Source of the DNA: Acidimicrobiales bacterium
GTDB taxonomy: Bacteria > Actinomycetota > Acidimicrobiia > Acidimicrobiales > JAMCQF01
Direction of reading: 5' to 3'
Assembly (NCBI GenBank): GCA_027366675.1
Contig: DAHXND010000034.1
Span: 1 to 41,985 of the forward strand
DNA length: 41,985 nt
Below are positions 1,389-30,532 of this stretch, piece by piece (position 1 is the stretch's first letter; each line of letters begins with the position of its first letter). A program made the translations under genes and the position numbers. A model generated the notes under the pieces. It did no database searches, was not told where the DNA came from, and saw only the letters and a program-made list of their open reading frames with translations.

Positions 1389-1414
1389 CTAATAGGGCCG
1401 AAAGTCCCTATTAG
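1389..1414. promoter_or_regulatory. DosR/DevR-like palindromic operator (ATAGGGCCGAAAGTCCCTAT)
   Basis: Arms CTAATAGGG / CCCTATTAG; fits the mycobacterial DevR consensus TTSGGGACTWWAGTCCCSAA; lies between divergent genes. Confidence 0.8.
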
Positions 1415-1422
1415 TCGTAAAT

Positions 1423-1548
1423 GGGTCCTGCCAGCGATCTTCCAGGGTCCTGCGAGCGATCCTTCCGGGGTCCTGGGAGCGATCTTCCCGGGAGAAGCCC
1501 AGCGCCCTATCACACCGCTTATCACACCGCCCTTCCGCCCTTCCGCCC
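1423..1548. repeat. Intergenic tandem repeats: GGGTCCTG(N)2AGCGATC(C)TTCC(N) x3, TATCACACCGC x2, CCCTTCCG x2
   Basis: 22-23-bp units at 1423, 1445, 1468; 12-bp units at 1508, 1520. Confidence 0.8.
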
Positions 1549-1659
1549 AGCATCGCGTCCCTTCACTACCACCACGATCTGCCGGTAGAATCTGCTGGGA
1601 TTCGTCGAGCATCCACTAGGCTCTCCCGGGTGGAGGCGACCCCGGACAGGGAGCTCGGC

Positions 1660-2745
1660 ATGCCTGAGATCATGATCGACGCCGCTGGCATCACGAAGTC
1701 TTTCGGGGAGACCCGTGCCCTCGACGACGTGGATCTCCAGGTGCATGCTGGCACGGTGCTAGCCCTGCTCGGGCCGAACGGCGCAGGGAAGACCACCCTC
1801 GTCCGGATCCTCTCGACGCTGCTGCTCCCGGACTCTGGCACCGCCTCGGTCGCTGGATACGACATCGTTCGCCATGCCGTGGAGGTCCGGTCGATGATAG
1901 GGCTGGCTGGCCAGTTCGCTGCGGTGGACGACATACTGACCGGCAGGGAGAACCTGGAGCTGGTCGGCTTGCTCTACCACCTGAAGAAGAAGGACCGGAA
2001 GGAACGAGCTGCTGAGGTCCTGGAGCGCCTGAACCTCACCGATGCGGCGGACCGCCTGGTGAGGACGTACTCAGGTGGGATGCGCCGGCGCCTCGACCTC
2101 GGCGCCAGCTTGGTTGGCCGTCCGAAGATTCTCATATTGGATGAGCCCACCACGGGTCTTGATCCGGTGACCAGAACGGAGCTGTGGCGCTTCATAGAGG
2201 CTCTCGTGGCAGAAGGGACCACGCTCCTTCTCACGACTCAGTACCTGGAGGAGGCAGACCAGCTCGCTGATCGCATCGTGGTCATAGATCACGGCCACGT
2301 GATAGCGAACGGGACGGCGAACGAGCTGAAGGACCAGCTTGGAAGTGACGTCATCGAGGCGACGGTTACCGATTCCGGGCAGATGGGCGAGGCGGTACGG
2401 CTGATTGCCGATCTGGGTCATGGAACCCCGATAGAGGACCCCTCCCGGCGGCTGATCACAGTTGCGACTGACGGGAAGGCGAAGACGCTTCTGGAAGCAG
2501 CGCGGCGCCTGGACGAGCATGGCATAGGTCTGGACGACATCAGCTTGCGGCGCCCATCACTCGATGATGTGTTCCTCTCGTTGACGGGCCACGGCGCCGA
2601 CGGCTCGAGCACCGGCGGTTGGAGCACAGACGCCCTGGTCACCCACGGCGCAACCACGGATGCCCGCGACAGGGACGGCGCAGGCTCTGCTATGTCCGCA
2701 GGCGCTCGCAGCGCAGCATCGAGGGGTTCAGGGCAGCAGTCGTGA
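1660..2745 (+). CDS. ABC exporter ATP-binding protein, DrrA-like
   Basis: Walker A GPNGAGKTT, signature YSGGMRRR, Walker B LILDEPTTGLD, C-terminal PSLDDVFL; ATG 1660 preceded by AGGGAG (track starts at 1630). Confidence 0.92.
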   Translation: MPEIMIDAAGITKSFGETRALDDVDLQVHAGTVLALLGPNGAGKTTLVRILSTLLLPDSGTASVAGYDIVRHAVEVRSMIGLAGQFAAVDDILTGRENLELVGLLYHLKKKDRKERAAEVLERLNLTDAADRLVRTYSGGMRRRLDLGASLVGRPKILILDEPTTGLDPVTRTELWRFIEALVAEGTTLLLTTQYLEEADQLADRIVVIDHGHVIANGTANELKDQLGSDVIEATVTDSGQMGEAVRLIADLGHGTPIEDPSRRLITVATDGKAKTLLEAARRLDEHGIGLDDISLRRPSLDDVFLSLTGHGADGSSTGGWSTDALVTHGATTDARDRDGAGSAMSAGARSAASRGSGQQS

Positions 2746-3563
2746 GTGTCGTGGAGGCCCCGGTGATTGGCGCTCCCGCCGGCGAGGCACCGCCCGGGCC
2801 GATCACGCTCGGTGTCGCGCTTGTCGACATAGCCGGGATCACGAAGCGTAACCTGCTCCGTATATACAGGACGCCTCGGCTGCTCATCTTCTCGAGCATC
2901 CAGCCGATCATGTTCGTCCTGCTCTTCCGCTACGTCTTCGCGGGGGCGATAAAGATTCCTCATGGGCTCTATGTCGACTACCTGATGCCTGGCATCTTCG
3001 TGCAGATCTCTATCTTCGGAGGGTCCTCTACCGCGGTGGGGCTGGCTACTGACCTGCAGGGCGGCATAGTGGATCGCCTGCGATCACTGCCCATGGCCCG
3101 CTCGGCGGTGCTGGCTGGGAGGACCCTAGCCGACCTGGCCCGGAACTTCCTGGTCCTCGTGCTGATGGTCGGGGTCGGCGTGCTGGTGGGGTTCAGGTTC
3201 CACGGGACAGCGGGAAGTGACATAGCAGGTCTGGGCCTGGTCCTGCTGTTCGGCTACGCGTTCTCATGGGTGTTCGCGACGATCGGGCTAATGGTGAAGG
3301 ATCCGGAGACCGCTCAGATCGCCGGTTTCCTGCCGCTGTTCCCCCTCGTCTTCGCGAGCTCTGCCTTCGTCCCGGTAGCGAGCATGCCTGGATGGCTTCA
3401 GGCATTCGCGAAGGTCCAGCCCGTGAGCGTCACTGTCGATGCAGTGCGAGCGCTCGTGTCGGGCACACCCGCTTTCCACTGGGTGTGGCAGTCGCTCCTG
3501 TGGGCGGTAGGCTTCCTCGGCTTCTTCGCAGTTCTGGCAGTGAACCGGTACCGTAAGCTCTGA
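2742..3563 (+). CDS. ABC-2 type permease, DrrB-like
   Basis: GTG overlaps the upstream stop (GTGA); about 6 hydrophobic segments; QPIMFVLLFRYVF, DRLRSLPMARSAVLAGR, SSAFVPVASMPGWLQ. Confidence 0.92.
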   Translation: MSVVEAPVIGAPAGEAPPGPITLGVALVDIAGITKRNLLRIYRTPRLLIFSSIQPIMFVLLFRYVFAGAIKIPHGLYVDYLMPGIFVQISIFGGSSTAVGLATDLQGGIVDRLRSLPMARSAVLAGRTLADLARNFLVLVLMVGVGVLVGFRFHGTAGSDIAGLGLVLLFGYAFSWVFATIGLMVKDPETAQIAGFLPLFPLVFASSAFVPVASMPGWLQAFAKVQPVSVTVDAVRALVSGTPAFHWVWQSLLWAVGFLGFFAVLAVNRYRKL

Positions 3564-3590
3564 AGCACTGCCGTGGCGATCTGTTGATCC

Positions 3591-4289
3591 TCAGGCGTCC
3601 AGGATGCGGCCATCTCGCATGTGGATAACCCGGTCGGTCACGGCTGCGACGCTGTCATCGTGAGTGACCATCACGATGGTGGTGCCCGTCTGTTCCCTGA
3701 GCCGGGTCAGGAGAGCCACGACCACCTTCACTGACGCAGAGTCCAGGCTTCCGGTTGGCTCGTCCGCGAGCAGCAGCCTCGGGTCATTCGCGAGTGCTCG
3801 GGCGATAGCGACCCTCTGGCGCTCTCCCCCGGACAGCTGTGCAGGCTTGCGATCTGCAGCGTGCGCCAGCTCCACCAGCTCGAGGAGCTGGGCTGCTTTC
3901 TCCTTGTGACTCGGGGCACCGTGCTCGTGTCTGACCATGGCTATCTCCACGTTCTCGAGCGAGGTGAGCTGGGGGAGAAGGTTATGGAACTGGAAGACCA
4001 GCCCTACCTCCTCGCGCCGGTACTTGGCCAGGTTCTTCATGCGACCGAGATCTGCTCCGAAGATCCGGACGGTACCTGATGTCGGAGTGTCGAGCGCAGC
4101 CAGAAGATGGAGAAGGGTGCTTTTCCCGCAGCCGGATGGCCCCGTTACAGCGACGAATTCTCGCTCAGCCACCTGCAGGTCCACCCCATCCAGAGCGCGG
4201 ACGTTCCCATCGCTATAGACCTTGGTCAGGCCTACTACTTCTACCGCGAGGCCCGCGCCCCGTTCGTCTACCTGGTATGCCTCGGCCAC
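3591..4289 (-). CDS. ABC transporter ATP-binding protein, LolD/MacB-like
   Basis: GPSGCGKST, LSGGERQRVAIARAL, LLADEPTGSLD, VTHD. Confidence 0.92.
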   Translation of the reverse strand: MAEAYQVDERGAGLAVEVVGLTKVYSDGNVRALDGVDLQVAEREFVAVTGPSGCGKSTLLHLLAALDTPTSGTVRIFGADLGRMKNLAKYRREEVGLVFQFHNLLPQLTSLENVEIAMVRHEHGAPSHKEKAAQLLELVELAHAADRKPAQLSGGERQRVAIARALANDPRLLLADEPTGSLDSASVKVVVALLTRLREQTGTTIVMVTHDDSVAAVTDRVIHMRDGRILDA

Positions 4290-4346
4290 CAGAAGACCCT
4301 GAAAGAAGCGGAACCTTCAGCCGCCGGAGACGCCACCAAGGCCACC

Positions 4347-5465
4347 TTATTCGTGCCCCAGTGCATCCATTGGGGAGCGCATGGCGGCGCGGACGGCTGG
4401 ATAGAGCGTCCCGAGGAAGGTCATCGCGAGAGCCGTGGCGAAGCCCGTGATGAAAGCGCTCGCCGTGAAGTGCGCATGGAGCACCCCTAACAGCTGTGGT
4501 AGCTGGGTGAGCAGCAGCACGACTATTACCGCCAGGGCTAGGCCCGCTGCAGTGCCGACGATGGCAAGGAAGAATCCTTCGCCCATTATCAGCCCTACGA
4601 TACGCTTCCTCGACCAGCCCACAGACAGCAGCATGCCGAACTCCCTGGTGCGCTCGAAGAGGGAGAGAAGCATGGTGTTCCCTATGATGATCGCCCCTAT
4701 GACCACGGCCAGTATGGCGCTGCCTGTGGCTGCTGCCTTCACGAAGACGAGCGTAAGGTCAGCCTGGCCGAACTGCGCCGCTGTGCGCAGGGCCATGAGC
4801 TCCGGCTGGGCGTAGGTGATGCGGTGCATCACTTTGCTGACAGGTACCCCATGGTCGACCTTCACGAATATCAGGGTCACGATTCCTGGCACGCGGTTGT
4901 ATCCCTGGAGCGCCGGCAGGGGGAAGAAGGCCGCGTCGTTGCCGAAGGAGCTACTCGTGGACACGATGCCGGTGACAGTGTTCACAGCTCCGTTGGCCCT
5001 GAACTTGTCACCTACGTGGAGCCCGAAGTTCTGAGCGGCGGTGTAGCCGAGCATGACCTGGTTCGTCGCGTCGGCACTATACGAGTGACCGGCCAATATC
5101 TTCACTCCGAAGGGGGCCAGGTCGGACGGGGCGATGCCCACCTCGATGAACACGGGGTTCGCTGCATTTATCTTCTCGGTCTCGACCAGCACGCCCACCG
5201 CGCTCGCGACCCCGGGGGTGGAATCGATTTTCTTGAGCGTTGGTTTGTCGATAGTGCTGTTCAAGATGTCGGAAACGCCCTTCTGGGAGAGTACGAAGTT
5301 GGCCTCTCCTATGTGCATCACTGCAGTAGCCGAGCTCTCGAGGCCGCTTCCCACCACTGTCAGAGCCACCACGGTCATCACTGCGAAAGCTATGGCAAGG
5401 GCCAGTCCGATGGATCGGGACTTCTTCCCCCAAAGGTTGCGGGCTACCAGCGCGAGAGTGGACAT
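4347..5465 (-). CDS. ABC transporter permease, FtsX/MacB-like
   Basis: N-terminal TM, large extracytoplasmic loop, ERTREFGMLLSVGW motif, 3 C-terminal TMs, YPAVRAAMRSP. Confidence 0.9.
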   Translation of the reverse strand: MSTLALVARNLWGKKSRSIGLALAIAFAVMTVVALTVVGSGLESSATAVMHIGEANFVLSQKGVSDILNSTIDKPTLKKIDSTPGVASAVGVLVETEKINAANPVFIEVGIAPSDLAPFGVKILAGHSYSADATNQVMLGYTAAQNFGLHVGDKFRANGAVNTVTGIVSTSSSFGNDAAFFPLPALQGYNRVPGIVTLIFVKVDHGVPVSKVMHRITYAQPELMALRTAAQFGQADLTLVFVKAAATGSAILAVVIGAIIIGNTMLLSLFERTREFGMLLSVGWSRKRIVGLIMGEGFFLAIVGTAAGLALAVIVVLLLTQLPQLLGVLHAHFTASAFITGFATALAMTFLGTLYPAVRAAMRSPMDALGHE

Positions 5466-5581
5466 CAGAGCTAGGAGCTTACCGGTGGCGTTCTCAGGGT
5501 GGGGCCGGGAGGCCGGCTCAGCGTGTCGCGCACCAGGTCAGCCGGCCCGGACACGTAGGGCGTCTTTCCACGAAACCGAAA

Positions 5582-5601
5582 TGAGGGACTTTCGGCCCTG
5601 G
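5582..5601. promoter_or_regulatory. DosR/DevR-like operator (TGAGGGACTTTCGGCCCTGG)
   Basis: 16-bp core AGGGACTTTCGGCCCT is the exact reverse complement of the core at 1394-1409; divergent intergenic region. Confidence 0.8.
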
Positions 5602-5764
5602 CAATCCTCTTCCTTCGTGGTGATCATGGAGGGGTGGACCGGGATCGAGGCTGTGATGGTGCCTCTGGGGGAGGATCGACTGTAGCGCCTGCTCCGGCAA
5701 GGGCCCGGTACCTGGAGGGAGACGGCTCCGGGTCGCGGGGGGAGCTGCTCGTGGCAGCGGGACG

Positions 5765-7213
5765 ATGCCGGTGGCGTTAGTGTTTCGTGATCGTAGCGAG
5801 GCTGGGCAGCTCTTGGGCCGCCGCCTGGCTCATCTCCGAGTGGAGCATCCGGTCGTGCTCGGTCTGCCCCGGGGCGGCGTCCCGGTAGCTGCCGAGGTGG
5901 CCAGAGCCCTGGATGCTCCGCTCGATGTCCTGGTAGTGCGGAAGCTCGGTGTGCCGTTCCAGCCAGAGCTCGGTATAGGAGCAGTGGCGGAGGGCGGTGT
6001 AACGGTGGTCGACAGCGACATGGCTGAGCGCTCGGGGTTGGGTCGCTACGAGATCGGGGTTGTCGCTGCCAGGGAACGTGACGAGATGGCTCGCCTTGTC
6101 AGGCTCTACAGAGATGGCATCCAGCCAATCGACATCTCCGGTCGTACCGCCGTCATCGTCGACGATGGCCTGGCAACTGGGGGTACCGCTCGAGCAGCGA
6201 TACGAGCGGTCCGTGCCAGGGGCGCGGCGAAGGTCATACTGGCTGTGCCGGTCGCACCGCGCGACACCGTGGCCGAGCTCGAGCACGAGGCGGACGAGGT
6301 CGTGTGCCTTCGAGCGCCGGGCCAGTTCCAGGCCGTGGGGCAGTGGTACGGGAACTTCTCCCAGACGACCGACCAGGAAGTGGTGGATCTGCTCGAGACG
6401 AATGGCAGCCTGGATCCGGGGGGGCTCAGGCTGGATCCGGGAGAGCTCAGCCTGGATCCGGGAGAGCTCAGCCTGGATCCCGGAGGGCTGGCATCGAGCC
6501 CTGGCAGCGCTGGGAGCGCTGGGAGTCGCCTGCCGGGGGACAGCTCTGGCGGCGGATGTGGCAGCTTCGAGAGAGATGTCGTCATAGACGCGGGCAGCGT
6601 TGAGCTAGCTGGTCGGCTGGAAGTTCCCGAGGGGGCGTGGGGGCTCGTCGTCTTCGCTCATGGTGCTGGCAGCAGCCGCCACAGCCCGCGGAATCGCTCG
6701 GTTGCTCATGCTCTCCAGGCGAGAGGCATGGGCACCCTGCTTTTCGACCTCCTGACGGAGGAGGAGGCGCTCTACCGCGCGAAGGTCTTTGACATCGCTC
6801 TCCTCTCCAGCCGCCTGGTCGAGGCCACCATGTGGGCGCGCCGCCAGCCTGGAGTTGGCGAGCTGCCCGTCGGCTATTTCGGCGCGAGCACAGGGGCGGC
6901 AGCGGCTCTGTCGGCAGCAGCGAAGCCTGGTAACTACGTGAGGTCGGTAGTCTCCAGGGGTGGTCGGCCTGATCTGGCTGGCAGCGCGCTTCCGTTAGTT
7001 CCCTGCCCAGTGCTCCTGATCGTCGGGGGAGCAGATACCGAGGTGCTGGAGATGAACCGCGAGGCGGCTGCGAGGTTGTGCAGCGTAACGCGATTGGTGG
7101 TGGTCCCAGGGGCCACGCACCTCTTCGAAGAACCCGGGGCCATGGAGCGGGTCGAGAGCCTGGCCGGCGAGTGGTTCGAGGAGCACCTGGCTTTGCAGGC
7201 GTCTCGCAGGTAG
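5765..7213 (+). CDS. Phosphoribosyltransferase + alpha/beta (dienelactone-type) hydrolase fusion, Rv0571c-like
   Basis: FRDRSEAG, LGLPRGGVPVA, PRPP loop VIVDDGLATGGT; C-terminal FAHGAGSSR, nucleophile elbow GYFGASTG, ATHLFEEPG. Confidence 0.9.
   Translation: MPVALVFRDRSEAGQLLGRRLAHLRVEHPVVLGLPRGGVPVAAEVARALDAPLDVLVVRKLGVPFQPELGIGAVAEGGVTVVDSDMAERSGLGRYEIGVVAARERDEMARLVRLYRDGIQPIDISGRTAVIVDDGLATGGTARAAIRAVRARGAAKVILAVPVAPRDTVAELEHEADEVVCLRAPGQFQAVGQWYGNFSQTTDQEVVDLLETNGSLDPGGLRLDPGELSLDPGELSLDPGGLASSPGSAGSAGSRLPGDSSGGGCGSFERDVVIDAGSVELAGRLEVPEGAWGLVVFAHGAGSSRHSPRNRSVAHALQARGMGTLLFDLLTEEEALYRAKVFDIALLSSRLVEATMWARRQPGVGELPVGYFGASTGAAAALSAAAKPGNYVRSVVSRGGRPDLAGSALPLVPCPVLLIVGGADTEVLEMNREAAARLCSVTRLVVVPGATHLFEEPGAMERVESLAGEWFEEHLALQASRR
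6406..6489 (+). repeat. In-frame 21-bp tandem repeat x4 (SLDPGEL) in the interdomain linker
   Basis: CAGCCTGGATCCGGGAGAGCT-like units at 6406, 6427, 6448, 6469. Confidence 0.9.
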
Positions 7214-7343
7214 GGGGGCGGGTCGGGCACCTGGTGAGGGTCGGTCAGGCGCACCTGCTTGACCGCCGTGAACGGTCGGGAACCCGGCAAGGGCGGTTAG
7301 GTGAGCTCCCATACAGGGGTGCTCCAGAGAGAGGAGAGAAGCG

Positions 7344-8114
7344 ATGGCAGGAGTCAAGGGCAAGACAGTCGTGGTTACTGGGGCTGGTCTGGGGATAGGC
7401 AGGGCAACGGCACTGCTCTTCGCCAAGAGAGGTGCCAGGGTGGCCGTCACGGACGTGAAGAAGCAGGAAGGAGAGGAGACGGCGAGCCAGATACTCGGCG
7501 CAGGTGGTGAGGCAGTGTTCATATCACATGACGTGTCGTCAGAGGAGCAGTGGGCACGTGCCCTGTCCGATGTCGCCGACCGTTTCGGCGGTATAGATGT
7601 TCTGGTGAACAATGCAGGTATCTACTTCATCGCCCCTATCGGGGACATCACACTGGAGCAGTGGAACCATCTGTTCTCGATAAACGTGAATGGTGTGTTC
7701 CTCGGCGCCAAGCACGTTGCACCGTACCTCGCATTGCGGGGCGGTGGCTCGATCGTGAACCTCTCATCTGTGGCGGGGCTGCTTGGTGTTGCCGGCCATG
7801 CGTGCTACGGGGCGAGCAAAGGAGCCGTGCGGATACTTACGAAAGATCTGGCAGCGGAGCTCGGTGCGCAGAACATCCGAGTGAACTCCATACACCCCAC
7901 GTATGTGAAGACTGCTATGGCTGAATACGGAGCAGCAGTGGCGGGGAAGACCCTGGACGAGCTGGGACGGGAGATGTCGGTGCTCGGCCGTATGGCAGAG
8001 CCTGAAGATGTGGCGAATGTGATCGTGTTCCTGGCTTCGGACGAGTCGAGCTACCTGACGGGGGCCGAGTTCGTTGTCGATGGAGGAGGAGGCGCGTCGG
8101 TATTGGCTGTCTGA
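7344..8114 (+). CDS. Classical short-chain dehydrogenase/reductase (SDR)
   Basis: TGAGLGIG, NNAG, catalytic S (NLSS) and YGASK, RVNSIHP; RBS GAGGAG. Confidence 0.93.
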   Translation: MAGVKGKTVVVTGAGLGIGRATALLFAKRGARVAVTDVKKQEGEETASQILGAGGEAVFISHDVSSEEQWARALSDVADRFGGIDVLVNNAGIYFIAPIGDITLEQWNHLFSINVNGVFLGAKHVAPYLALRGGGSIVNLSSVAGLLGVAGHACYGASKGAVRILTKDLAAELGAQNIRVNSIHPTYVKTAMAEYGAAVAGKTLDELGREMSVLGRMAEPEDVANVIVFLASDESSYLTGAEFVVDGGGGASVLAV

Positions 8115-8213
8115 AGCAGGGCTCGCGGGTTGGCTAGCATCGGCGTGAGTGGATGAGCGCGCTTTGCTGTGGAAGTCTTTGCTGTGCAAGAAGGCCAATG
8201 AGCGGGCTCTACC

Positions 8214-9182
8214 ATGCCTCTAGTCGACGTAGCGCTGCTCATATGTGCGGCACTCCTCACGGCAGTGGTGAGTGGATCGAACGACGGGGCGACGCTCGTC
8301 GCCCTGAACACGCGGACCACCACCATCACTCCAGGGCTTGCCCTCATGGGCCTCTCGGCATTCGTGGCCTTCGGGCCGTTTCTTGTCGGGACGGCTGTGG
8401 CGAGAACGGTCGCGCGCGGACTCGTGGCTTTCGAACAATCCGGTGGGTCGCTCGCCTTCCTGGTGGCCGTCGCCTGTGCTCTGGCTGTAGTTTTCTTCCT
8501 GAGCCATCGAGGCATGCCGACGAGCGTTACGCTTGCTCTTACTGGCACCATCGTTGGCTCTGGCCTCGGGTTTCGCCTGCCCGTTCACTGGGCGACAGTG
8601 GGTGCGGTGCTTCTGGCGGGTCTGGTTGCTCCGCTTGGAGCAGCGCTGGCCGGGTATATCGTTGCCAGTATAGAGTTGCGGCTGAAGCCCCCGGCCCTTC
8701 CTCCAAGGGCAAGGCGGAATGCTGAACGGCTCGGGTTCCTGCTCGAGTGCTTCGCATACTCTTCCAACGATGCCGAGAAGCTGGTGGCGATCATGGCGAT
8801 AGCCATAGGAACCACGAGCGGTGCCATCAGGCTGTCTCCACTCGGTCAGATCGGCCTTGGCCTATGCTTCGCTCCAGGGATATTGCTGTCGCTGCGCCAG
8901 GTGGCGAGGCGCGTCTCGGAGAGGATGGTGCAGGTGCGCTCGGACACGGTGATAGGCGTGACGTTCTGCGCCTCCGGTGTGGTTCTGGCCTGTTCGGCCC
9001 TTGGCTATCCGATATCGTCGACCCAGGCTGCTACGGCCGCGCTCGTCGGCGTGGGTGCCCGGGTCGCGCCCAGGCGGGTTCAGTGGGGCGAGGCAGCGGC
9101 TATAGGATTGGCGTGGGTGGTGACATTGCCGTTGGCGTTGGGGCTGGCTGCCGGCGCCGGCTTCGTCATAAGGGCGCTATGA
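8214..9182 (+). CDS. pit: PiT-family inorganic phosphate transporter
   Basis: Two PiT signature-like motifs (GSNDGA, SSNDAEK), PTSVT, PISSTQ; highly hydrophobic; coupled to a DUF47 gene. Confidence 0.85.
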   Translation: MPLVDVALLICAALLTAVVSGSNDGATLVALNTRTTTITPGLALMGLSAFVAFGPFLVGTAVARTVARGLVAFEQSGGSLAFLVAVACALAVVFFLSHRGMPTSVTLALTGTIVGSGLGFRLPVHWATVGAVLLAGLVAPLGAALAGYIVASIELRLKPPALPPRARRNAERLGFLLECFAYSSNDAEKLVAIMAIAIGTTSGAIRLSPLGQIGLGLCFAPGILLSLRQVARRVSERMVQVRSDTVIGVTFCASGVVLACSALGYPISSTQAATAALVGVGARVAPRRVQWGEAAAIGLAWVVTLPLALGLAAGAGFVIRAL

Positions 9183-9988: not shown

Positions 9989-10038
9989 GGTGCTGGCTGC
10001 CCGCATACAAGGTCCGGCTAGACGGGAGGAATGTAGCG

Positions 10039-20099: not shown

Positions 20100-20168
20100 G
20101 ATCTGTCTCTTCCGGCGTTATGGCTCATGAACTGCACTCTAGATCCTCGCACGCCAGAGGGTGGGCGT

Positions 20169-20188
20169 GTAGGGCCATTGGTCCCTAA
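20169..20188. promoter_or_regulatory. DosR/DevR-like operator (GTAGGGCCATTGGTCCCTAA)
   Basis: TAGGG.C-N4-G.CCCTA palindrome between the two divergent GH65-containing units. Confidence 0.8.
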
Positions 20189-20337
20189 TCAGGACGCGAT
20201 GCCAGCTGGTTGGTAGAGGCTTTTTGCTGGCTGGTCAATCGCTGGATCTTGCAGCGGTTCTGGCGAATGAGGAGAAGGGAGAGCGCTCTGCCTCTAGGCT
20301 GGGGTCTCAGATGGCGGCTGATCCGGAGGTGGCGGGC

Positions 20338-23300
20338 ATGGGTGTGGATTTGTTCTCCGGAGCATATCGCGCGTGCCTGTTCGATCTCGACGGGGTGCTG
20401 ACCGACACGGCTTCGATTCATGCGAAGGCCTGGAAACAGGCCTTCGACTCCTTCCTCGCGAGCTGGTGCCAGATGCATGCTGAGATCCCCACGCCTTCAG
20501 AAGGCGAGCCGTCGGAGCCCCTCCGTCCGTTCGATCTGCGAGATGACTACGACGCCTACGTGGACGGGCGCCCGAGAGAGGCGGGTGCCAGGGCATTCCT
20601 CGAGAGCAGGGGGCTGGACGTTCCATTCGGCGATCCCGCGGAAGGAACGGACGCCTTGACTGTATGTGGAGTCGCTGCTCGGAAGGACGCGCTCTTCCTG
20701 GAGATGCTGGGCGAGGAGCATATCGTGGTGTTCCCGGATTCCATGGCGCTGTTGGAGGCAGCAGTCGCAGGGGGGTTCGCGGTAGCCGTCATCTCCTCCA
20801 GCGCCAATACCAGGCAGGTTCTCGAGGCGGCAGGCATCGCTTCCTACTTTCCTGTGGTAGTAGATGGAATCCTTGCAAAGACCCTGCAGCTCCATGGTAA
20901 GCCCGCTCCAGACACCTACCTGGAAGCCGCTCTGGAGCTAGGGGTCCTTCCGGCCGAGGCCGTTGTGTTCGAGGATGCCATGGCTGGGGTGGAGGCAGGT
21001 CACGCGGGTGGCTTCGGCCTGGTGGTCGGCGTGGCGCGACATGGTCAGGGAGAGCGCTTGCTGCGTTCAGGCGCAGACGTGGCCTCTGAGCGTCTGGACG
21101 AGCTGCTTCCTGGAAGGATGCCCCTGGGTGAGGGCAGGGACGCGCCGGGTTCCCAGGCTGTCGCCAGGGACCCAGCAGGAAGGGAGCTTCTCCTGGATAA
21201 GACGTCCGTCGGTGAGCGTATCTGGGATGCCGTCGTTCTAACCGGGGAAGCGGTCGGGGTGCTGGCGGGATCGCCCCTTGCTTCCGAGGCTTCCCGCCTG
21301 GCGGGGGCGCTTTCCTCCGGTAGTGGTGTGGTTTTCATCTCGCTCGGCGATCTGGCGGCTAATCCACCCTGCGACGTTCAGTTGGCTTCCGATATGAGCC
21401 GCGCTCGGGAGATCCTGTGGGAGATGGGGGTGCCCCGGGGGAGAGCCCTCGCCTTCGGTGGTGGACCCGCGGCCGATCGCCTGCTCACGTCCCTGCTGCG
21501 TGGCCAGGTGCATGGTCGCTCGCACCTTCCGGTTCCACGGCCGGACCTGGTGGAGGGTTGGTACGTAACGGTGGATGCTTCCACCCCCGGAGGGCACCGT
21601 GCTCATGAGTCACTGCTCTCTCTGGCTGATGGGCGGATGGGCACGCGTGGGAGCTTGGAGGAGGCCGGTGAGTCATCGAGGCCGCTTGTCGTTGCCGCGA
21701 ACCTCTACATGCGCTCGGCTGACGGCTTCCAGGAGCTGGTATCCTGCCCGAACTGGGCACTGGGGATCTCCTGGCAAGACGATGATGGGTCGGGATCTGC
21801 CCACGGCGGCGGAGTAGATCCCGACCAGGCGGGTGATGCGCGTGATTGGCATCAAGCCAGCGCGCCGGGACAGATCAGGAGGGTTCTCGATCTGAGAAGC
21901 GGGCTTCTTTATCGGGAGGGCCCCTTCCAGGGACAGCGCTCCGTGCGCTTCGTATGCGCTGCGAGACCAGGGGTCGCTGTGTTGCGCGCCAGCGGTGACG
22001 CGGGGTCTATGCACGTAGGACAGGCCCTGGCTCCTGCGCTACAGCCTGCTACAGCCACACAGCTTGCTGCAGCGACCTCGAAGACCCCGCCACTCGCTAG
22101 CGGTGTGGAGCCGAGAGGCCAGGATGCAGTGCCATTCGGCGAGCGCGGCGACAGCCAGGAAGCCGTGCCATTCGCTGCGAGGAGCGAAGAGCAGGAAGCA
22201 GTCTCGTCGAGCGCGCCTCCGGGAGGGGTGGCTGCGGCAGCTCGCCAGCGCTTCGCTTCGGCTATGGGGTCTGACAGGCTGGAGCGGCTGGCCGCCTACG
22301 TGGCAAGTGCCGATGCTCCTCCCGATCCAGGATCTGCTGGCGCGAAGCTGGCAGAGGTGGCCCGGGCTGGATTCGATGCGCTTTTATCCGAGCAGCGGCG
22401 CTCCTGGGCAGCTAGGTGGGCGAATGCGGGGGTCTCCATATCCGGAGATCCGGAGACCGAGCTGGCAGTGCGCTTCGGGCTGTTCCACCTGCTCTCCAGC
22501 GTGGCGGGCGACGGCGAGGCCGCGCTCGGGGCACGTGGCCTCTCCGGCCCGGGCTATGGAGGCCATGTCTTCTGGGATGCAGACGTCTTCGTGCTCCCGT
22601 GCCTGGCAGCGATCCGCCCGCAGGCGGCCAGGGCCATGCTCGAGTACCGGATCAGGCGCCTCGAACCGGCGAGGCGGGCGGCCGCAGCCAGCGGGAGGGA
22701 GGGCGCCCGGTTCCCCTGGGAGTCCACCCGCGAAGGCATAGACGTGACCCCGCGTAAGGCCACCAGGCCGGACGGGACCGAAGTGGAGATCCTGACAGGC
22801 GAGCTCGAGGAGCATATAACCGCTGATGTCGCCTGGGCTGCATCCTGGTATGCCCGCTGGACTGGCGACGACAGGCTACTCGCAGGTACGGCCGGCGAGC
22901 TCGTAGTCGAGACGGCGCGCTACTGGGCCAGCAGGCTGGAGCGGGATGCGGACGGTAGCGCTCATATCCGGGATGTGATCGGCCCCGATGAGTACCACGA
23001 GCATGTCGATGACAACGCCTTCACGAATCTCATGGCTCGATGGAACCTTCGCTACGCTGCATCGCTCATCGATAGGGAGCCCAGCTTGGTTGGGGGCGCT
23101 CGGGAGGCGGCCCGGTTGCGCTCGGAATGGCTGGATCTCGTTGCCACGATAAAGGACGGCTACGACTCAGCTAGCGGTCTCTATGAGCAGTTCGATGGCT
23201 TCTTCGCTCTGGAGCCGCTGGTTATAGCGGAGGTAGCTGACATCCCGGTGGCTGCCGATGTGCTGCTGGGGTCGCAGCGGGTAGCTGGTGCCCAGGTGAT

Positions 23301-23871
23301 AAAGCAGGCAGACGTTCTCATGGCGCACCACATGATCCGAGAGGAGGTAGTGGCGGGCTCGCTCCGGGCGAACCTCGAGTTCTACGGCCCGCGATGTGCT
23401 CACGGAAGCACGCTGTCGCCTGCCATCCAGGCGGAGATGCTGGCCAGGGCAGGTAGACCGGACGAGGGTCTCAGGTTCTTGCGTATGGCGAGCCGCATCG
23501 ACCTCGATGACATCGGGAGCACTTCTGCCGCCGGTCTTCACGTGGCTTCGATGGGAGGCGTTTGGCAGGCACTGGCCTATGGATTCCTCGGTCTGTGGCC
23601 CAGGGGGGATGCGCTGGCTGTAGATCCACGCCTCCCGTCTGCCTGGCATGAGCTGGCGCTGGTACTCACCTTCAGGGGTAGGCGTGTGCGCGTGAGCGCT
23701 ACGAGCGAGAGGTTGGAGATCGAGATCCTGGGGTGGGACGGTAGTGGTGACGCATCACTCGATGTGGTGCTCGGGTCCGAGGCGTCGGCAAGGAGAGTTA
23801 TGGGTTCGGCGGCGTTCTTTCACGGATCAGAAGGGTGGGTCGCGGCGAAGGGAGGTGCTCTCGGTGGGTGA
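20338..23871 (+). CDS. HAD (beta-phosphoglucomutase-like) + GH65 phosphorylase fusion
   Basis: N-terminal FDLDGVLTDT, SSSAN, GKPAPD, FEDA; C-terminal ARGLSGPGYGGHVFWDAD, GPDEYHE, IKQAD, HGSTLS. Start uncertain (20224/20311/20338; the last has RBS GGAGGT). Confidence 0.9.
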   Translation: MGVDLFSGAYRACLFDLDGVLTDTASIHAKAWKQAFDSFLASWCQMHAEIPTPSEGEPSEPLRPFDLRDDYDAYVDGRPREAGARAFLESRGLDVPFGDPAEGTDALTVCGVAARKDALFLEMLGEEHIVVFPDSMALLEAAVAGGFAVAVISSSANTRQVLEAAGIASYFPVVVDGILAKTLQLHGKPAPDTYLEAALELGVLPAEAVVFEDAMAGVEAGHAGGFGLVVGVARHGQGERLLRSGADVASERLDELLPGRMPLGEGRDAPGSQAVARDPAGRELLLDKTSVGERIWDAVVLTGEAVGVLAGSPLASEASRLAGALSSGSGVVFISLGDLAANPPCDVQLASDMSRAREILWEMGVPRGRALAFGGGPAADRLLTSLLRGQVHGRSHLPVPRPDLVEGWYVTVDASTPGGHRAHESLLSLADGRMGTRGSLEEAGESSRPLVVAANLYMRSADGFQELVSCPNWALGISWQDDDGSGSAHGGGVDPDQAGDARDWHQASAPGQIRRVLDLRSGLLYREGPFQGQRSVRFVCAARPGVAVLRASGDAGSMHVGQALAPALQPATATQLAAATSKTPPLASGVEPRGQDAVPFGERGDSQEAVPFAARSEEQEAVSSSAPPGGVAAAARQRFASAMGSDRLERLAAYVASADAPPDPGSAGAKLAEVARAGFDALLSEQRRSWAARWANAGVSISGDPETELAVRFGLFHLLSSVAGDGEAALGARGLSGPGYGGHVFWDADVFVLPCLAAIRPQAARAMLEYRIRRLEPARRAAAASGREGARFPWESTREGIDVTPRKATRPDGTEVEILTGELEEHITADVAWAASWYARWTGDDRLLAGTAGELVVETARYWASRLERDADGSAHIRDVIGPDEYHEHVDDNAFTNLMARWNLRYAASLIDREPSLVGGAREAARLRSEWLDLVATIKDGYDSASGLYEQFDGFFALEPLVIAEVADIPVAADVLLGSQRVAGAQVIKQADVLMAHHMIREEVVAGSLRANLEFYGPRCAHGSTLSPAIQAEMLARAGRPDEGLRFLRMASRIDLDDIGSTSAAGLHVASMGGVWQALAYGFLGLWPRGDALAVDPRLPSAWHELALVLTFRGRRVRVSATSERLEIEILGWDGSGDASLDVVLGSEASARRVMGSAAFFHGSEGWVAAKGGALGG

Positions 23872-24790
23872 AGCGGGTAATGGAGGGCGAGGAGGTGTCC
23901 TGAGCGAAGATGCTGGCGGATCTGAGTCGAGGGGAACGGTGCTCGTTGCCCTCGACTCCTCCATGGCGGCAATGCCTGTAGCACGGGCGGCATCTGCACT
24001 TGCAACGCTGATAGGAAGCAGGCTCGAGGCAGTTCATGTAAGCGAAGAAGGCACGGGCTCGCTTGCAAATGGCGCTGCCGGCGCAGCAGGGATCTCGCTC
24101 ACGCGGCTGGAGGGGGGGAACGTATCGGCGCAGATAGCCGAGGCCGGGTCCCGTGAGCCCGTGCTGGCTCTGGTGATGGGTGCCAGGAGCTCTCCCGGGG
24201 GTCGTTACCCGGCTGGGCATGTAGCCATCGAGGTCATGTCCGGATTGGGCAAGCCAGTGCTCGTCGTGCCGCCAGAGGAGAATATGTCTGTGGTCGAGCC
24301 AGCGAAGCATGCCAACCGTTTCAAGGCTGGGGTAGGGGTGGCTTCGCCACTCATAGCGGCAGAGGGCTCACCGCTTCACGTGCTCGTAGCCCTGGACGGT
24401 ACCGAGGCAGGCAAGAGAGCGACCGACCGAGCACTCGGGCTCCTTTCCAACGCCAGGGTGGAGCTGACGGCTGTGCACGTGTTCAGCTCTGACACACTCC
24501 CGCGCTTCTGGGACCAGCAGCAGCATGCAGGCGTGTCGTGGTCGAAGGAGTTTCTCTCCCGCTATCTACAATCCTTGCCAGTGAGGCTTAAGTTGCGCAC
24601 TGGCTCGCCGGCAGGCCAGATCCTGGAGGCAGCGAGTGACGACAAGGCCGGCATGATCATCATGGGATATGGGTTGTCTGGATCGGGCAGCAAGGGACTG
24701 ACCGGCGGCTTCCCGGGAGATGTCGTGAACGAGGTGCTCAGCAGGTCGAACGTCCCGGTGCTGCTCGTTCCCGAGCTGCTCGGTTCTTAG
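23864..24790 (+). CDS. Universal stress protein, tandem domains
   Basis: VLVALDSS...KPVLVVP and VLVALDGT...VPVLLVP; GTG at 23864 after GGAGGTG, overlapping the upstream gene. Confidence 0.85.
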   Translation: MGEAGNGGRGGVLSEDAGGSESRGTVLVALDSSMAAMPVARAASALATLIGSRLEAVHVSEEGTGSLANGAAGAAGISLTRLEGGNVSAQIAEAGSREPVLALVMGARSSPGGRYPAGHVAIEVMSGLGKPVLVVPPEENMSVVEPAKHANRFKAGVGVASPLIAAEGSPLHVLVALDGTEAGKRATDRALGLLSNARVELTAVHVFSSDTLPRFWDQQQHAGVSWSKEFLSRYLQSLPVRLKLRTGSPAGQILEAASDDKAGMIIMGYGLSGSGSKGLTGGFPGDVVNEVLSRSNVPVLLVPELLGS

Positions 24791-27883: not shown

Positions 27884-27964
27884 ACGGATCACTCACGTAA
27901 CGCTAGCGGATGCCAGGGCCAGGTATGTGCCTACGATCGAACTGTGGCTGTCAGCGGAGCTCCG

Positions 27965-29641
27965 ATGACCAACATCGAGCACGAGGTGAAGCTGGATGCC
28001 GGCCCGACGGTCGCGCTTCCGAGCATGGACGGCCTGGTGGAGGGGGTCTCGGCGTCCAGCCTGCCTGATCAGCGCCTGCGGGCGGTGTACTACGATACAG
28101 TAGATCTGCGGCTCGCCCGAGAGGGGGTGACACTACGCAGGCGCACTGAGCGCTCGGGTCCGGCTGAGGCCAGGTCACTTTGGACCTTGAAGCTGCCCGT
28201 CCTCTCGGGTGCCAAAGGATCGGAGCGTAAGGAGCTGTCGTGGCCGGGCAGGCACAGGGCGATGCCGCGGATGGCCCGCTCTCTCGTCCGGGCCTTCTCG
28301 CTCGACGAGCCTCTCGGTATCGTCGGAGTGCTGGTCACGGACCGGAGGAGGGTTGTCGTTCGCGGACCTGAAGGAGGGCTGCTGCTCGAGATCGACGATG
28401 ATCTGGTGTCTGTGATGGAGGGGTCCCGCATAGCTGCTCGGTTCCGCGAGGTGGAGGTCGAGGTGGTTGGCCCAGGTGGGGAGAAGCTTCTCCAACCTGC
28501 CGTCACGAGGTTACGGGTAGCAGGCGTGGTGCACGCTACAGGACGGCCGAAGTTGGTACGGGCTCTCGGAGAACGAGCCATGGAGCGGCCAGAGGTATGG
28601 CCCGTGAAGCTCGGACCTCGTTCGACCGTGCGGGAGCTTCTTGGAGCGGCCCTCGCTGACGGCTACAGGAGGTTGGTGGTGCACGACCCTGGAGTGAGGC
28701 TTGACGAGGATCCAGAGCATGTCCATCAGGCCCGGGTCGCCACGCGCAGGTTGAGGTCGGATCTGCACGCGATGCGGCCGCTCGTGGATGCGAGCTGGCT
28801 GCTGCGTGCGAGCCCCGAGCTCGGCTGGCTTGGCAAGGTGCTTGGACACGTGCGGGACATCGACGTGCTGAGCCTGCGCATCGAGGTCGGCATGGGGATG
28901 CTGGATGAGCGTGACAGGAACCTCGCCAGACCGCTTCTCGCGAATCTGGCGAGCGAGCGAAGGGTAAGGCGACGGGAGCTCGCTTCGGCCATGGATTCGA
29001 GCAGGTACACGGAGCTCCTCGGGATGCTGGCTGGCGCATCCTTGAATCCTCCCGTTGCAGATCGATGGGAGCTCTCAGCCCGCGTGATGGCTGAGTGCAG
29101 GGATGAGAAGCCGTTACCGGACATGGCCATTCCAGTTGCCGAGGCGGCCCTGCCCCGGTCAGCGCCTCTGGCAGCCGAGGAAGGGGCTTTCGCTCATGAT
29201 GTGCCGGCTGGGGAGATTCCAGGCAACGATGTGGTTGGCTGGATAGCTGCCAGTGCTTGGAATCGTCTGTCGAGGAGGGTTGGGAAGCTGGGGACGGAGC
29301 CGTCCGACGCCGATCTGCACCTGGTGCGCATAGGGGCGAAGAGGCTTCGATATGCTTGCGAGGTAGCTGCTCCGGTGGCTGGCAAGCAGGCGTCACGCCT
29401 TGCTGTGAAGGCCGCAGCGTTGCAGGATCTTCTCGGCGCGGGGCGAGACGCTCTCATGGCAGAGCAGTGGCTCAGGGCAGCAGCTCGTTCAGCGCCTCGA
29501 GATCGAGCGCTGGTGATAGGGCAGATGATCGCCTTCGAGAGGGCGAGCCAGAGGGAAGCACGAGAGCTATGGCCGGTTCTGTGGGAACGGGCACAGCTCA
29601 GAGTCAGGCGGGATCGAGGGTGGCTGCGGCCTGGCCGATGA
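27965..29641 (+). CDS. CYTH + CHAD domain protein (polyphosphate-associated)
   Basis: CYTH ExExK (EHEVK), YYDTVDLRL..GVTLRRR, WTLKLP, FREVEVE; CHAD VHQARVATRRLRS, LGHVRDIDV, LHLVRIGAKRLRY, LQDLLG. Confidence 0.9.
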   Translation: MTNIEHEVKLDAGPTVALPSMDGLVEGVSASSLPDQRLRAVYYDTVDLRLAREGVTLRRRTERSGPAEARSLWTLKLPVLSGAKGSERKELSWPGRHRAMPRMARSLVRAFSLDEPLGIVGVLVTDRRRVVVRGPEGGLLLEIDDDLVSVMEGSRIAARFREVEVEVVGPGGEKLLQPAVTRLRVAGVVHATGRPKLVRALGERAMERPEVWPVKLGPRSTVRELLGAALADGYRRLVVHDPGVRLDEDPEHVHQARVATRRLRSDLHAMRPLVDASWLLRASPELGWLGKVLGHVRDIDVLSLRIEVGMGMLDERDRNLARPLLANLASERRVRRRELASAMDSSRYTELLGMLAGASLNPPVADRWELSARVMAECRDEKPLPDMAIPVAEAALPRSAPLAAEEGAFAHDVPAGEIPGNDVVGWIAASAWNRLSRRVGKLGTEPSDADLHLVRIGAKRLRYACEVAAPVAGKQASRLAVKAAALQDLLGAGRDALMAEQWLRAAARSAPRDRALVIGQMIAFERASQREARELWPVLWERAQLRVRRDRGWLRPGR

Positions 29642-29901
29642 GGAGCCGTCGCAGCGACGACAGCCTTAGGCGGTCTCGGGTCCAGATGCCGGGCAGCATC
29701 CACGGCTCTCGCCATCTGATCTGGCGTCGAGCGCAGGAAGCCCGTGACCGTTGCGGGGGCGCAGGCAAGGCGGCAGGCACCACCACGCCGACGCGTAGAT
29801 GATTTCCCAGGGATGGGCCAGCGGCCGGAGGGCAACTGGCTATTCCGCCGCGGACTCCGGCAAGGTCATCGGGTGGAACGGCTTACGTGTTGACCTGGCA
29901 C

Positions 29902-30354
29902 TCAGCCACGGGTGACCGGGATCTGGCGGGCAGGTTCGGCCGTGCTTGCACCGGGCATAGGGATTCGCACCTCTAAGATGCCATCCTTGTACGAGGCGTC
30001 TATAGCGGACTCGTCCACGCCGTCAGGAAGCGGGATCTGGCGGGCGAAGGAGCCATATCGAAGCTCGTGCCGCCGGAAATGCCGCCCGCTGCTGCTCTCT
30101 TCTTCACTGCGCTCGGCCGAGATCTGGAGCATCCCGGCCGAGACTGTTATCTGCACGTCCTTCTCGGGGTTGATCCCAGGTATCTCTGCCCGGACAACGA
30201 GCCGGTCTCCTTCGGTGAACTCTTCTACCTGTATAAGGTTGTTACCGTCGCCGTCTTGCAGTAGATCTTCGAACCATCGCCAAGGCGTGAGCATGGAAGC
30301 TGGCCAGTCGACACGCTGCTGGAGGTTCGGGTCGGCGCGCTTTATGAGCGACAT
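29902..30354 (-). CDS. Small heat-shock protein (Hsp20/alpha-crystallin)
   Basis: ATG 30354 after AGGGAG; VRAEIPGINPEKD, ELRYGSFARQIPLP, ASYKDGILEV, C-terminal IPV motif. Confidence 0.93.
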   Translation of the reverse strand: MSLIKRADPNLQQRVDWPASMLTPWRWFEDLLQDGDGNNLIQVEEFTEGDRLVVRAEIPGINPEKDVQITVSAGMLQISAERSEEESSSGRHFRRHELRYGSFARQIPLPDGVDESAIDASYKDGILEVRIPMPGASTAEPARQIPVTRG

Positions 30355-30512
30355 ATGATTCTCCCTTCTCGTCTGCGCAGGAGAGGCATCTGGGCCGGAA
30401 CTGCGCAAGTCTCCACTTGGTAGTTCTCCTGTACTCGTACCCGCCGTGCTGACACCCGCCGTGCTGGTAACCTCGTACTGTTTCCAACTATGCGGCGGGG
30501 ATTGAGCGCATA

Positions 30513-30532
30513 CTAGGGCCGAACGGCCTGTT
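30513..30532. promoter_or_regulatory. DosR/DevR-like operator upstream of hsp20 (CTAGGGCCGAACGGCCTGTT)
   Basis: TAGGGCCGAA is identical to the 1393 site; right arm GGCCTG is degenerate. Confidence 0.65.

Follow-up and report, generated by a model that had tools for sequence, protein, structure and literature searches.

A predicted DevR/OsdR-type regulon in an uncultured member of the Acidimicrobiia and its PAS-type sensor kinase

Introduction

Two described regulatory systems bear on the four 20-bp palindromes treated here, DevR (DosR) of Mycobacterium tuberculosis with the sensor kinases DevS and DosT, and OsdR-OsdK (SCO0204/SCO0203) of Streptomyces coelicolor. The palindromes lie in a stretch of 41,985 nucleotides from an Acidimicrobiales bacterium (GenBank assembly GCA_027366675.1, contig DAHXND010000034.1, positions 1 to 41,985), which in its full length is called the window throughout. 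In M. tuberculosis the DevR C-terminal domain, as a dimer, contacts G4G5G6A7C8T9 in each half of its palindromic operator, the Dev box, and within the 18-bp motif G5 and C7 are indispensable (PMC3177182). All seven start-mapped promoters have the proximal Dev box 33 or 34 bp away from the transcription start, the tgs1 P box being at -42.5, and two or more tandem boxes are given as a hallmark of all M. tuberculosis promoters (PMC3177182). For Streptomyces a 16-nt OsdR consensus, AGGGCCGATCGGCCCT, was derived and stated to conform to that of M. tuberculosis (PMC5069765).

The host genome is a metagenome-assembled genome (MAG) of 2.48 Mb in 234 contigs (completeness 85%, contamination 1.3%), the nearest relatives of which are Acidimicrobiia. 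The sole sequencing run found to contain the window DNA is a mine-drainage metagenome, a DNA run that is possibly its source. Our literature search found no paper that combined DosR with Acidimicrobiia. We report that the four palindromes are very probably the operators (Dev boxes) of a DevR/DosR/OsdR-family regulator encoded on another contig, C2, of the same Acidimicrobiia genome.

Results

The four palindromes and the genome-wide motif

The original prediction, made from the window alone, listed four palindromes, and all four were present as quoted (Table 1). Each was also correctly said to lie between divergent genes (gaps 1289-1629, 5466-5779, 20100-20223 and 30355-30849); four of the seven divergent gaps of the window carry a box, and none was found in the 627-bp divergent gap 32204-32830. 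The 16-bp core ascribed to both of the first two sites proved to be AGGGCCGAAAGTCCCT, which is read directly at site 1 and in the reverse complement of site 2.

A matrix built from these four sites only was scanned against the genome. The seed sites were left out of the counts, and the reversed matrix and 60 palindrome-preserving column permutations served as controls. Genes were called by a codon-usage model trained on the long open reading frames (ORFs) of the genome, with a Pfam cross-check, which gave 2158 genes and 88% coding sequence; gene starts are those of this crude caller. At a score of at least 14 bits the matrix found 12 intergenic and 14 coding sites (reversed matrix, 6 and 19; permuted matrices, intergenic mean 2.15 and maximum 10). 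At 16 bits or above the counts were 6 and 5 (reversed, 2 and 5; permuted intergenic mean 0.47, maximum 3), and at 18 bits or above they were 5 and 3 (reversed, 0 and 0). Boxes exceed chance, and the motif is enriched in the intergenic DNA that makes up 12.4% of the genome; the possibility entertained with the original prediction, that the motif might be no more frequent there than expected, thereby fell away.

Iteration of the matrix gave 13 intergenic sites and 6 sites in called coding sequence at 16 bits or above genome-wide, and a consensus, ATAGGGCCGATCGGCCCTAT, that contains the Streptomyces OsdR consensus of PMC5069765. The most conserved columns are GGG and the half-site C, which match the DevR contacts given in PMC3177182. 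Palindromes of about 20 bp with GGGAC-type half-sites are present at the four window sites and at 9 further intergenic sites. The window contig, which is 1.7% of the genome, holds 4 of the 13 intergenic boxes (binomial P 5e-5, a generous value, these four sites having been the seeds of the matrix). We also examined 80 loci around DevR orthologues of other Actinomycetota and found a box of at least 14 bits in 29 of them; the 36 matches in 629 kb amount to about six times the density in the present genome (22 matches of at least 14 bits in 2.48 Mb). The motif travels with the regulator.

Promoter geometry

The 13 best intergenic boxes gave 26 oriented flanks, which were aligned on the box edge, and the hexamer nAnnnT was counted over 80 offsets. 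In 11 of the 26 flanks the hexamer started at box position 41 (positions 41-46, 20 bp past the box), where the mean count over the 80 offsets, position 41 included, was 0.8 (Bonferroni-corrected binomial P ~1e-8). The -10-like hexamers at position 41 include TATAAT (C85), TACTGT (C6) and TATCCT (C127). Near the DevR orthologues of other Actinomycetota (loci L026-L105), where 35 of the 36 box matches provided 70 oriented flanks, nAnnnT was found at offset 41 in 20 flanks and at offset 42 in 10 more (mean 1.6). Hence, the spacing between box and -10 hexamer is conserved across Actinomycetota to within 1 bp. Of the new evidence presented here, this promoter geometry is the strongest.

With the hexamer placed at -12 to -7, the inferred start is 33-34 bp away from the box edge and the box is centred at about -42.5. 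This position reproduces the M. tuberculosis values of PMC3177182, with a -10-like hexamer, rather than a mapped start, as the point of reference here. The spacing is obeyed by window sites 2, 3 and 4, and not strictly by site 1. A scan of site 3 for the sigma-70 consensus and for terminators gave no full promoter and no terminator-like feature; the lack of a full sigma-70 promoter is expected for an activator-dependent promoter that has no -35 element.

Two same-family relatives carry the arrangement as well. In one (G001:C193) a 16.3-bit box with TAGGGT at offset 41 lies upstream of the orthologue of the window phosphoribosyltransferase (PRTase), the start of which is 53 nt from the box start, suggesting a leaderless transcript. 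In the other (G002:C218) a 14.3-bit box with TACCCT at offset 41 faces the PRTase orthologue, and at the box adjoining the GH65 orthologue of that genome the -10 lies, as it does in the window, on the far side from GH65. The first relative has a further PRTase copy (G001:C154), at which no box was found.

The regulator

The regulator was said to be encoded outside the window, and our search for a DevR/NarL-family protein found it as a DevR orthologue on C2 of the same MAG. The 251-residue protein matched M. tuberculosis DevR (PDB 3c3w) with 239 bits (E 4.5e-70), residues 30-238 aligning with residues 2-210 of the chain over the full length; the runner-up matches were VraR (141 bits) and NarL (126 bits). 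It keeps the DD acidic pocket, the phospho-acceptor Asp (AVLDV) and the receiver Thr and Lys, and its recognition helix, EKTVKNYVS, is identical to that of DevR. DevR contacts bases through Lys179, Lys182 and Asn183. Lys182, which lies in this helix, is needed for binding according to a title cited in PMC3177182. NCBIfam holds no DevR-specific model for the protein, which scored far below the FixJ-specific models of that collection. Orthologues of 56-67% identity were found in about two-thirds of 30 same-order relatives, and the closest named DevR-orthologue records are MAGs of Acidimicrobiia/Acidimicrobiales, followed by Streptosporangiaceae, Kitasatospora and others. Together, the orthologue, the matching motif and the Acidimicrobiia relatives support the original inference of a clustered DosR/OsdR-like regulon in a non-mycobacterial actinobacterium.

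Immediately upstream of the kinase-regulator pair is a gene for a nitroreductase-family (Acg-like) protein, upstream of which no box was found. The arrangement recalls that of M. tuberculosis, in which an Acg-type nitroreductase lies beside devRS.

The genome contains five GerE-domain genes, and another of these proteins might be the main binder of the boxes. The foremost candidate is a 102-residue GerE-only protein that lacks a receiver and would act as a signal-independent repressor or competitor. Its helix (SEKTVKNYVS) has the same recognition sequence, it shares 52% identity with the C2 regulator's DNA-binding domain, it has the DevR C-terminal domain among its best PDB matches, and its gene comes directly after a box-driven pair of universal stress protein (USP) and PNPOx genes. 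These likenesses are outweighed by the fixed box-to-(-10) spacing without a -35, a signature of activator-dependent promoters, and by the co-occurrence of the motif with full-length DevR orthologues in other genomes; moreover, the isolated DevR C-terminal domain binds primary sites and is defective in cooperative interaction (PMC3177182). We consider it improbable that the short protein is the main binder. As both GerE proteins may well act on the same boxes, this alternative is more a complement than a replacement, and the receiverless protein might compete for, or tune, the boxes of the C2 regulator.

Observations weighing against the assignment

Several observations weigh against assigning the palindromes to the C2 regulator. 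The regulator and the window sit on separate contigs of the MAG; in GC content and tetranucleotide profile C2, the window and the remaining contigs with boxes all agree with the bin, but a matching profile does not prove that C2 and the window came from a single cell. Around the regulator gene no box reached 10 bits. The top site in C2:1-9000, at 9.3 bits, lies 225 bp upstream and lacks a -10 at the right spacing, and thus autoregulation, known for devR and osdR, was not seen. Save for one pair of boxes on C181, the sole two-box case, none of the 13 boxes had a second site above 4 bits within 60 bp, a weak negative since secondary sites are poorly conserved in M. tuberculosis and cryptic weak sites are possible. 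At site 1 neither side shows a canonical nAnnnT. Long 5' untranslated regions (UTRs) of about 130 nt are implied for the PRTase operon and for hsp20; an Rfam scan of the window matched no family and gave no support for riboswitches or thermometers in long leaders. Six of the 19 genome matches at 16 bits or above fall inside called coding sequence. Two of these coding calls, C166:306 (upstream of a glyoxalase domain) and C70:7319 (at a MazG start), are gene-start artefacts, and the boxes on C228, C140, C158 and C22 are apparently truly intragenic. Finally, the loose pattern AGGGNCNNNNGNCCCT is not over-represented (16 occurrences in the genome vs 19 for the reversed control), and the same was seen in 30 relatives. 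A pattern as frequent as its reversed control cannot be used to correlate motif with regulator presence among the 31 genomes; the signal resides in the full 20-bp matrix and in location.

The behaviour of the loose pattern and the high-scoring matches inside genes are also what might be expected if the palindromes were chance GC-rich inverted repeats, or structural elements such as terminator- or REP-like hairpins, with no regulatory role. One such element could be the palindrome between fliL and fliM on C200, which has no -10 at the canonical spacing and probably is not a Dev box. This reading is disfavoured by the intergenic enrichment over permuted and reversed matrices, by the exact distance at which a -10 hexamer accompanies the boxes, in this genome as well as in unrelated Actinomycetota, by the location of the boxes in divergent promoter regions and not between convergent genes, and by the lack of terminator-like features at site 3 and of any Rfam family in the window. 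We regard it as very unlikely indeed, and retain the boxes as probable operators of the C2 regulator.

Predicted targets

Taken as a guide to which divergent gene a box controls, the spacing assigns the window boxes to three predicted units: the PRTase operon, the operon of PNPOx, GH65, phosphoketolase, acetate kinase and H+-ATPase genes, and hsp20. The original prediction had extended the regulon to a Mo enzyme, ABC transporters and a fermentation operon. The fermentation operon holds up by its spaced -10. The molybdoenzyme, with TAGAAA only, is a borderline case and at most a possible target of box 1. At the ABC units no spaced hexamer was seen, which leaves the extension to them unsupported rather than refuted. 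These units, the HAD-GH65 gene and the gene at 30850 may be unregulated or may use another promoter arrangement.

The families of the M. tuberculosis regulon, all of which had been said to occur here, were indeed found, with two refinements. The P-type ATPase is of the H+-efflux type, as it passes the NCBIfam equivalog TIGR01647 (plasma-membrane H+-efflux) with 649.7 bits vs a cut-off of 615.5 bits. CtpF is a P-type ATPase of a different subtype. The HAD-GH65 protein resembles OtsB1 at the level of shared domains, its HAD domain belonging to the beta-phosphoglucomutase family (TIGR02009, above cut-off). No NCBIfam model matched the PRTase, USP or PNPOx proteins or the nitroreductase. The DevR target table lists USP, hspX, Rv0571c, otsB, ctpF and nitroreductases (PMC3177182), and that of OsdR lists USP, zinc alcohol dehydrogenase, PNPOx, nitroreductase and enoyl-CoA hydratase (PMC5069765). 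Compared as families and not as orthologues, the overlap with the present genome comprises USP, Hsp20, PRTase, PNPOx, zinc alcohol dehydrogenase, enoyl-CoA hydratase and the nitroreductase adjoining the regulator.

The sensor kinase and its signal

A GAF-containing DosS/DosT kinase, for which the original prediction had recommended a search, was not found: the sole HisKA_3 kinase found in the genome is a protein of PAS-HisKA_3-HATPase_c architecture with a FixL-like PAS domain, encoded convergently to the regulator. Neither of the two GAF matches in the genome lies in a HisKA_3 kinase, and with a MAG that is 85% complete a GAF-type or second kinase could be unassembled. The ATP-binding domain of the kinase is closest to those of DosT (3zxq) and DevS (3zxo). 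For its PAS domain the closest match is the haem-b PAS of Fimbriimonas FG214 (PDB 10JX, E 1.3e-14), and there are further matches to FixL haem domains (E about 1e-14 to 2e-14) and, more weakly, to E. coli DosP.

The haem ligands of FG214 are H156 (proximal) and H175 (distal) (bioRxiv 10.64898/2026.03.15.711900). In the alignments H133 of the kinase corresponds to FG214 H156 and to the His of the RSRH motif in FixL; none of the seven PAS-type kinases compared deviates from it. In the same seven proteins the position of the FG214 distal His175 is an invariant glycine (Gly152), that of the O2-binding Arg of FixL, which we take to be Arg220 in the numbering of B. japonicum FixL, is an invariant leucine (Leu153), and Met149 is invariant as well. 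The pocket formed by His133, Met149 and Leu153 is unlike that of FixL or FG214. Judged from these alignments, haem binding by the PAS domain is likely; Met149 as distal ligand is speculation.

Kinases of this kind are also found elsewhere. Among the 80 DevR-orthologue loci, 53 contained 54 kinase ORFs with a DevS-type core, and of the 50 that were examined with Pfam, 43 are of the GAF type, 6 of the PAS type and 1 of neither. The PAS-type kinases are those of loci L027, L031, L040, L051, L089 and L097, in addition to that of the present genome (L002), and several of the six come from MAGs labelled Acidimicrobiia or Ilumatobacteraceae. By domain annotation, then, the PAS form is a minority variant and is not unique to this genome. 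Our literature search found no title or abstract that described a PAS-type DevS partner.

Because the PAS domain resembles those of the haem-binding proteins FixL and FG214, the signal probably is O2, redox state or a diatomic gas. The boxes could be DevR-family operators that answer to a signal other than hypoxia, such as redox state, NO/CO, haem availability or the acid stress of mine drainage. The PAS domain in place of the haem-GAF domains of DevS/DosT, the distal pocket just described (Leu for the FixL Arg, Gly for His175 of FG214, and the invariant Met149), the H+-efflux ATPase of the box-3 operon and the mine-drainage origin of the DNA all point in that direction. Oxygen limitation, on the other hand, is suited by phosphoketolase/acetate kinase, 2-oxoacid:ferredoxin oxidoreductase, alcohol dehydrogenase and the DMSO-reductase-family enzyme; the targets overlap the hypoxia-induced DevR regulon, and the PAS domain has as its two best structural relatives haem proteins responsive to O2, redox state or ligand. 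We judge a signal other than hypoxia to be unlikely, although a serious contender.

Taking regulator, sensor and targets together, we tentatively suggest a reading that we hold to be quite possible and somewhat short of probable. In this minority DevR lineage a FixL-like haem-PAS domain joined to a DevS-type core would have replaced the haem-GAF kinases DevS/DosT. The sensor would drive single-box class-II promoters and a self-contained module for anaerobic maintenance: a disaccharide would be cleaved by GH65, ATP would come from phosphoketolase and acetate kinase, and the H+-efflux ATPase would hold pH and proton-motive force; the receiverless paralogue may tune the boxes.

Feature coordinates and further observations

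Table 1. Boxes, -10-like hexamers and genes discussed in the text. Positions are those of the window unless a contig is named.
Feature	Position	Strand	Sequence	Remarks
Dev/OsdR-type box 1	1392..1411		ATAGGGCCGAAAGTCCCTAT	27.7 bits, top-scoring box of the genome; between Mo-oxidoreductase and ABC ATPase genes
Dev/OsdR-type box 2	5582..5601		TGAGGGACTTTCGGCCCTGG	19.2 bits
Dev/OsdR-type box 3	20169..20188		GTAGGGCCATTGGTCCCTAA	18.4 bits
Dev/OsdR-type box 4	30513..30532		CTAGGGCCGAACGGCCTGTT	17.3 bits, weakest; one half-site degenerate (GGCCTG)
-10-like hexamer	1366..1371	-	TAGAAA	imperfect; 20 bp past box 1, Mo-enzyme side
-10-like hexamer	5622..5627	+	GATCAT	exactly 20 bp past box 2, toward PRTase operon
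-10-like hexamer	20143..20148	-	GAGGAT	20 bp past box 3, toward PNPOx operon; predicted 5' UTR about 37 nt
-10-like hexamer	30487..30492	-	CATAGT	20 bp past box 4, toward hsp20
Molybdopterin oxidoreductase (DMSO-reductase family, Fe4S4 domain)	2..1288	-		cut by contig end
ABC ATPase and ABC-2 permease	1630..3563	+		flank box 1; no canonical -10 on this side
ABC ATPase and MacB/FtsX permease	3591..5465	-		flank box 2; no canonical -10 on this side
Predicted box-2 operon	5780..10545	+		two-domain PRTase protein, SDR, PHO4 phosphate transporter, PhoU_div protein, USP
Predicted box-3 operon	10697..20099	-		five genes, gaps of at most 56 bp or overlaps
PNPOx-like protein	19668-20099	-		box-3 operon
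GH65	17137-19671	-		box-3 operon
Phosphoketolase	14501-17080	-		box-3 operon
Acetate kinase	13248-14504	-		box-3 operon
H+-efflux P-type ATPase	10697-13258	-		box-3 operon
HAD-GH65 fusion protein (1215 aa) and USP-domain protein	20224..24790	+		flank box 3; no canonical -10 on this side
Hsp20/alpha-crystallin small heat-shock protein, 150 aa	29902..30354	-		predicted box-4 target
Hypothetical protein, 261 aa, no Pfam family	30850..31635	+		flanks box 4; no canonical -10 on this side
Large subtilase (S8), MoxR AAA+ ATPase and 1123-aa transglutaminase-like protein, consecutive	32831-41358			unrelated to the boxes
DevR orthologue	C2:3987-4742			
PAS-HisKA_3-HATPase_c kinase, 392 aa	C2:2695-3873			
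Nitroreductase-family protein, 387 aa	C2:1380-2543			
GerE-only protein	C179:29619-29927 (L001:5620-5928)	-		
Two boxes, one in each direction	C181			40 bp apart; 2-oxoacid:ferredoxin oxidoreductase operon and hypothetical gene; spaced -10
Box	C85			zinc alcohol dehydrogenase; spaced -10
Box	C179			USP-PNPOx; spaced -10
Box	C53			hypothetical gene, then GNAT/CoA-ligase-type protein; spaced -10
Box	C6			acyl-CoA dehydrogenase and AMP-binding enzyme; spaced -10
Box	C127			TIG-domain protein; spaced -10
Box	C166			off-contig gene; spaced -10
Palindrome	C200:20882-20901			20.3 bits; between fliL and fliM
Box	C99:1050-1069			19.9 bits; between enoyl-CoA hydratase gene and TetR(MftR-like)-PNPOx-P450 unit

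The box on C99, a doubtful candidate, has no nAnnnT at offset 41 and has TACGAT 4 bp further. The fliL and fliM genes of C200 show that this Acidimicrobiia MAG carries flagellar genes. In the window, the PHO4 transporter and PhoU_div protein of the box-2 operon, with a CYTH-CHAD protein nearby (8214-9988 and 27944-29641), hint at a link of phosphate or polyphosphate to the stress response.

The window is unusually rich in short tandem repeats, their periods being 8-45 bp (29 Tandem Repeats Finder rows in 42 kb; examples are 1331-1383, 1423-1492, 6406-6489, 11549-11624, 14532-14661 and 31498-31595). They occur in both intergenic and coding DNA, and many of the coding ones have the frame-keeping periods of 15, 21 or 45 bp. 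The hexamer TAGAAA lies within a 25-bp tandem duplication (1331-1383), so the putative -10 of the molybdoenzyme is repeated. The repeats adjoining sites 1 and 4 were considered as extra half-sites and rejected, since repeats occur throughout the window, coding sequence included, and hence are a genome trait and not part of an operator.

Discussion

The mechanism that we propose begins with the PAS-HisKA_3 kinase beside the regulator, through which the signal would enter. A dimer of the phosphorylated regulator would bind the GGGNC half-sites of a single 20-bp box, which would stand in for the -35 element with its proximal edge 20 bp from the -10 and its centre at about -42.5, and RNA polymerase would be recruited in a class-II-like manner. 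In the window the targets would be the PRTase-SDR-PHO4-PhoU-USP and PNPOx-GH65-phosphoketolase-acetate kinase-H+-ATPase operons and hsp20, and possibly the molybdoenzyme; elsewhere they would be the 2-oxoacid:ferredoxin oxidoreductase operon, zinc alcohol dehydrogenase, USP-PNPOx and acyl-CoA genes.

From the annotation of these genes, we infer that the response would take the cell from failing respiration to maintenance and a non-respiratory metabolism. GH65 and the beta-phosphoglucomutase-family domain of the neighbouring fusion protein could feed hexose phosphate to phosphoketolase, the acetyl phosphate formed being converted to ATP by acetate kinase. Ferredoxin-linked 2-oxoacid oxidation and alcohol dehydrogenase could dispose of reductant. 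The H+-ATPase would expel protons and hold pH and proton-motive force, which is plausible for DNA from mine drainage, and the USPs and the alpha-crystallin chaperone would protect the cell.

DevR/DosR has mostly been studied as the dormancy switch of the tuberculosis bacterium, and what the present genome holds is a copy of the regulator, of its box and of the exact promoter spacing. That such a copy occurs in an uncultured member of the Acidimicrobiia from mine drainage supports an old, phylum-wide oxygen/redox stress response. The box-to-(-10) spacing offers a practical criterion, usable with any MAG, for deciding which divergent gene a box controls. The exchange of GAF for PAS and the phosphoketolase-acetate kinase-H+-ATPase operon give testable ideas on how acidophilic actinobacteria survive anoxia. 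Current knowledge is not overturned by these findings.

One close relative is the M. tuberculosis DevR-DevS/DosT system. The likeness extends over the NarL/GerE-family regulator with its full-length alignment and identical recognition helix, the 20-bp palindromic box with GGGNC half-sites in divergent intergenic DNA, the proximal box at about 33-34 bp from the start (inferred here) with its centre at about -42.5, and the ATP-binding domain of the kinase, for which DosT and DevS are the most similar proteins. At the family level it also takes in the targets (USP, alpha-crystallin, Rv0571c-like PRTase, OtsB-like HAD-GH65, P-type ATPase and the nitroreductase adjoining the regulator). The present system differs in having one FixL-like PAS domain where DevS and DosT have two GAF domains, single boxes where M. 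tuberculosis has tandem P-S arrays, no box at the regulator gene, and kinase and regulator genes that are convergent and not co-transcribed. Moreover, its ATPase is of the H+-efflux type and its predicted regulon includes phosphoketolase-acetate kinase, 2-oxoacid:ferredoxin oxidoreductase and alcohol dehydrogenase.

With OsdR-OsdK of S. coelicolor the system has in common a box consensus that includes the 16-nt Streptomyces sequence (PMC5069765), a host that is a non-pathogenic environmental actinobacterium, and the clustering of regulon genes on the chromosome with several USP genes. The USP, zinc alcohol dehydrogenase, PNPOx, nitroreductase and enoyl-CoA hydratase targets predicted for OsdR belong to families that adjoin boxes here. 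However, OsdK is 41-42% identical to DevS and DosT whereas the kinase described here is of the PAS type, osdR has its own box at -81 (PMC5069765) whereas none was seen at the C2 regulator, and OsdR also controls development genes, which have no counterpart here.

The resemblance to rhizobial FixL-FixJ is confined to parts. The PAS domain matches the haem domains of FixL with the proximal His aligned to H133, and FixJ, like DevR, is a GerE-type response regulator. Unlike FixL, however, the kinase has a HisKA_3 core of the DevS/NarX/DesK type, and the output regulator is a DevR orthologue rather than a FixJ. Similarity to the haem-PAS proteins E. coli DosP and Fimbriimonas FG214 lies in the PAS domain, and the distal Arg of FixL and distal His of FG214 are replaced by Leu and Gly. 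The system is a well-preserved relative of the known DevR/OsdR oxygen-stress circuit, with a sensor of a different kind.

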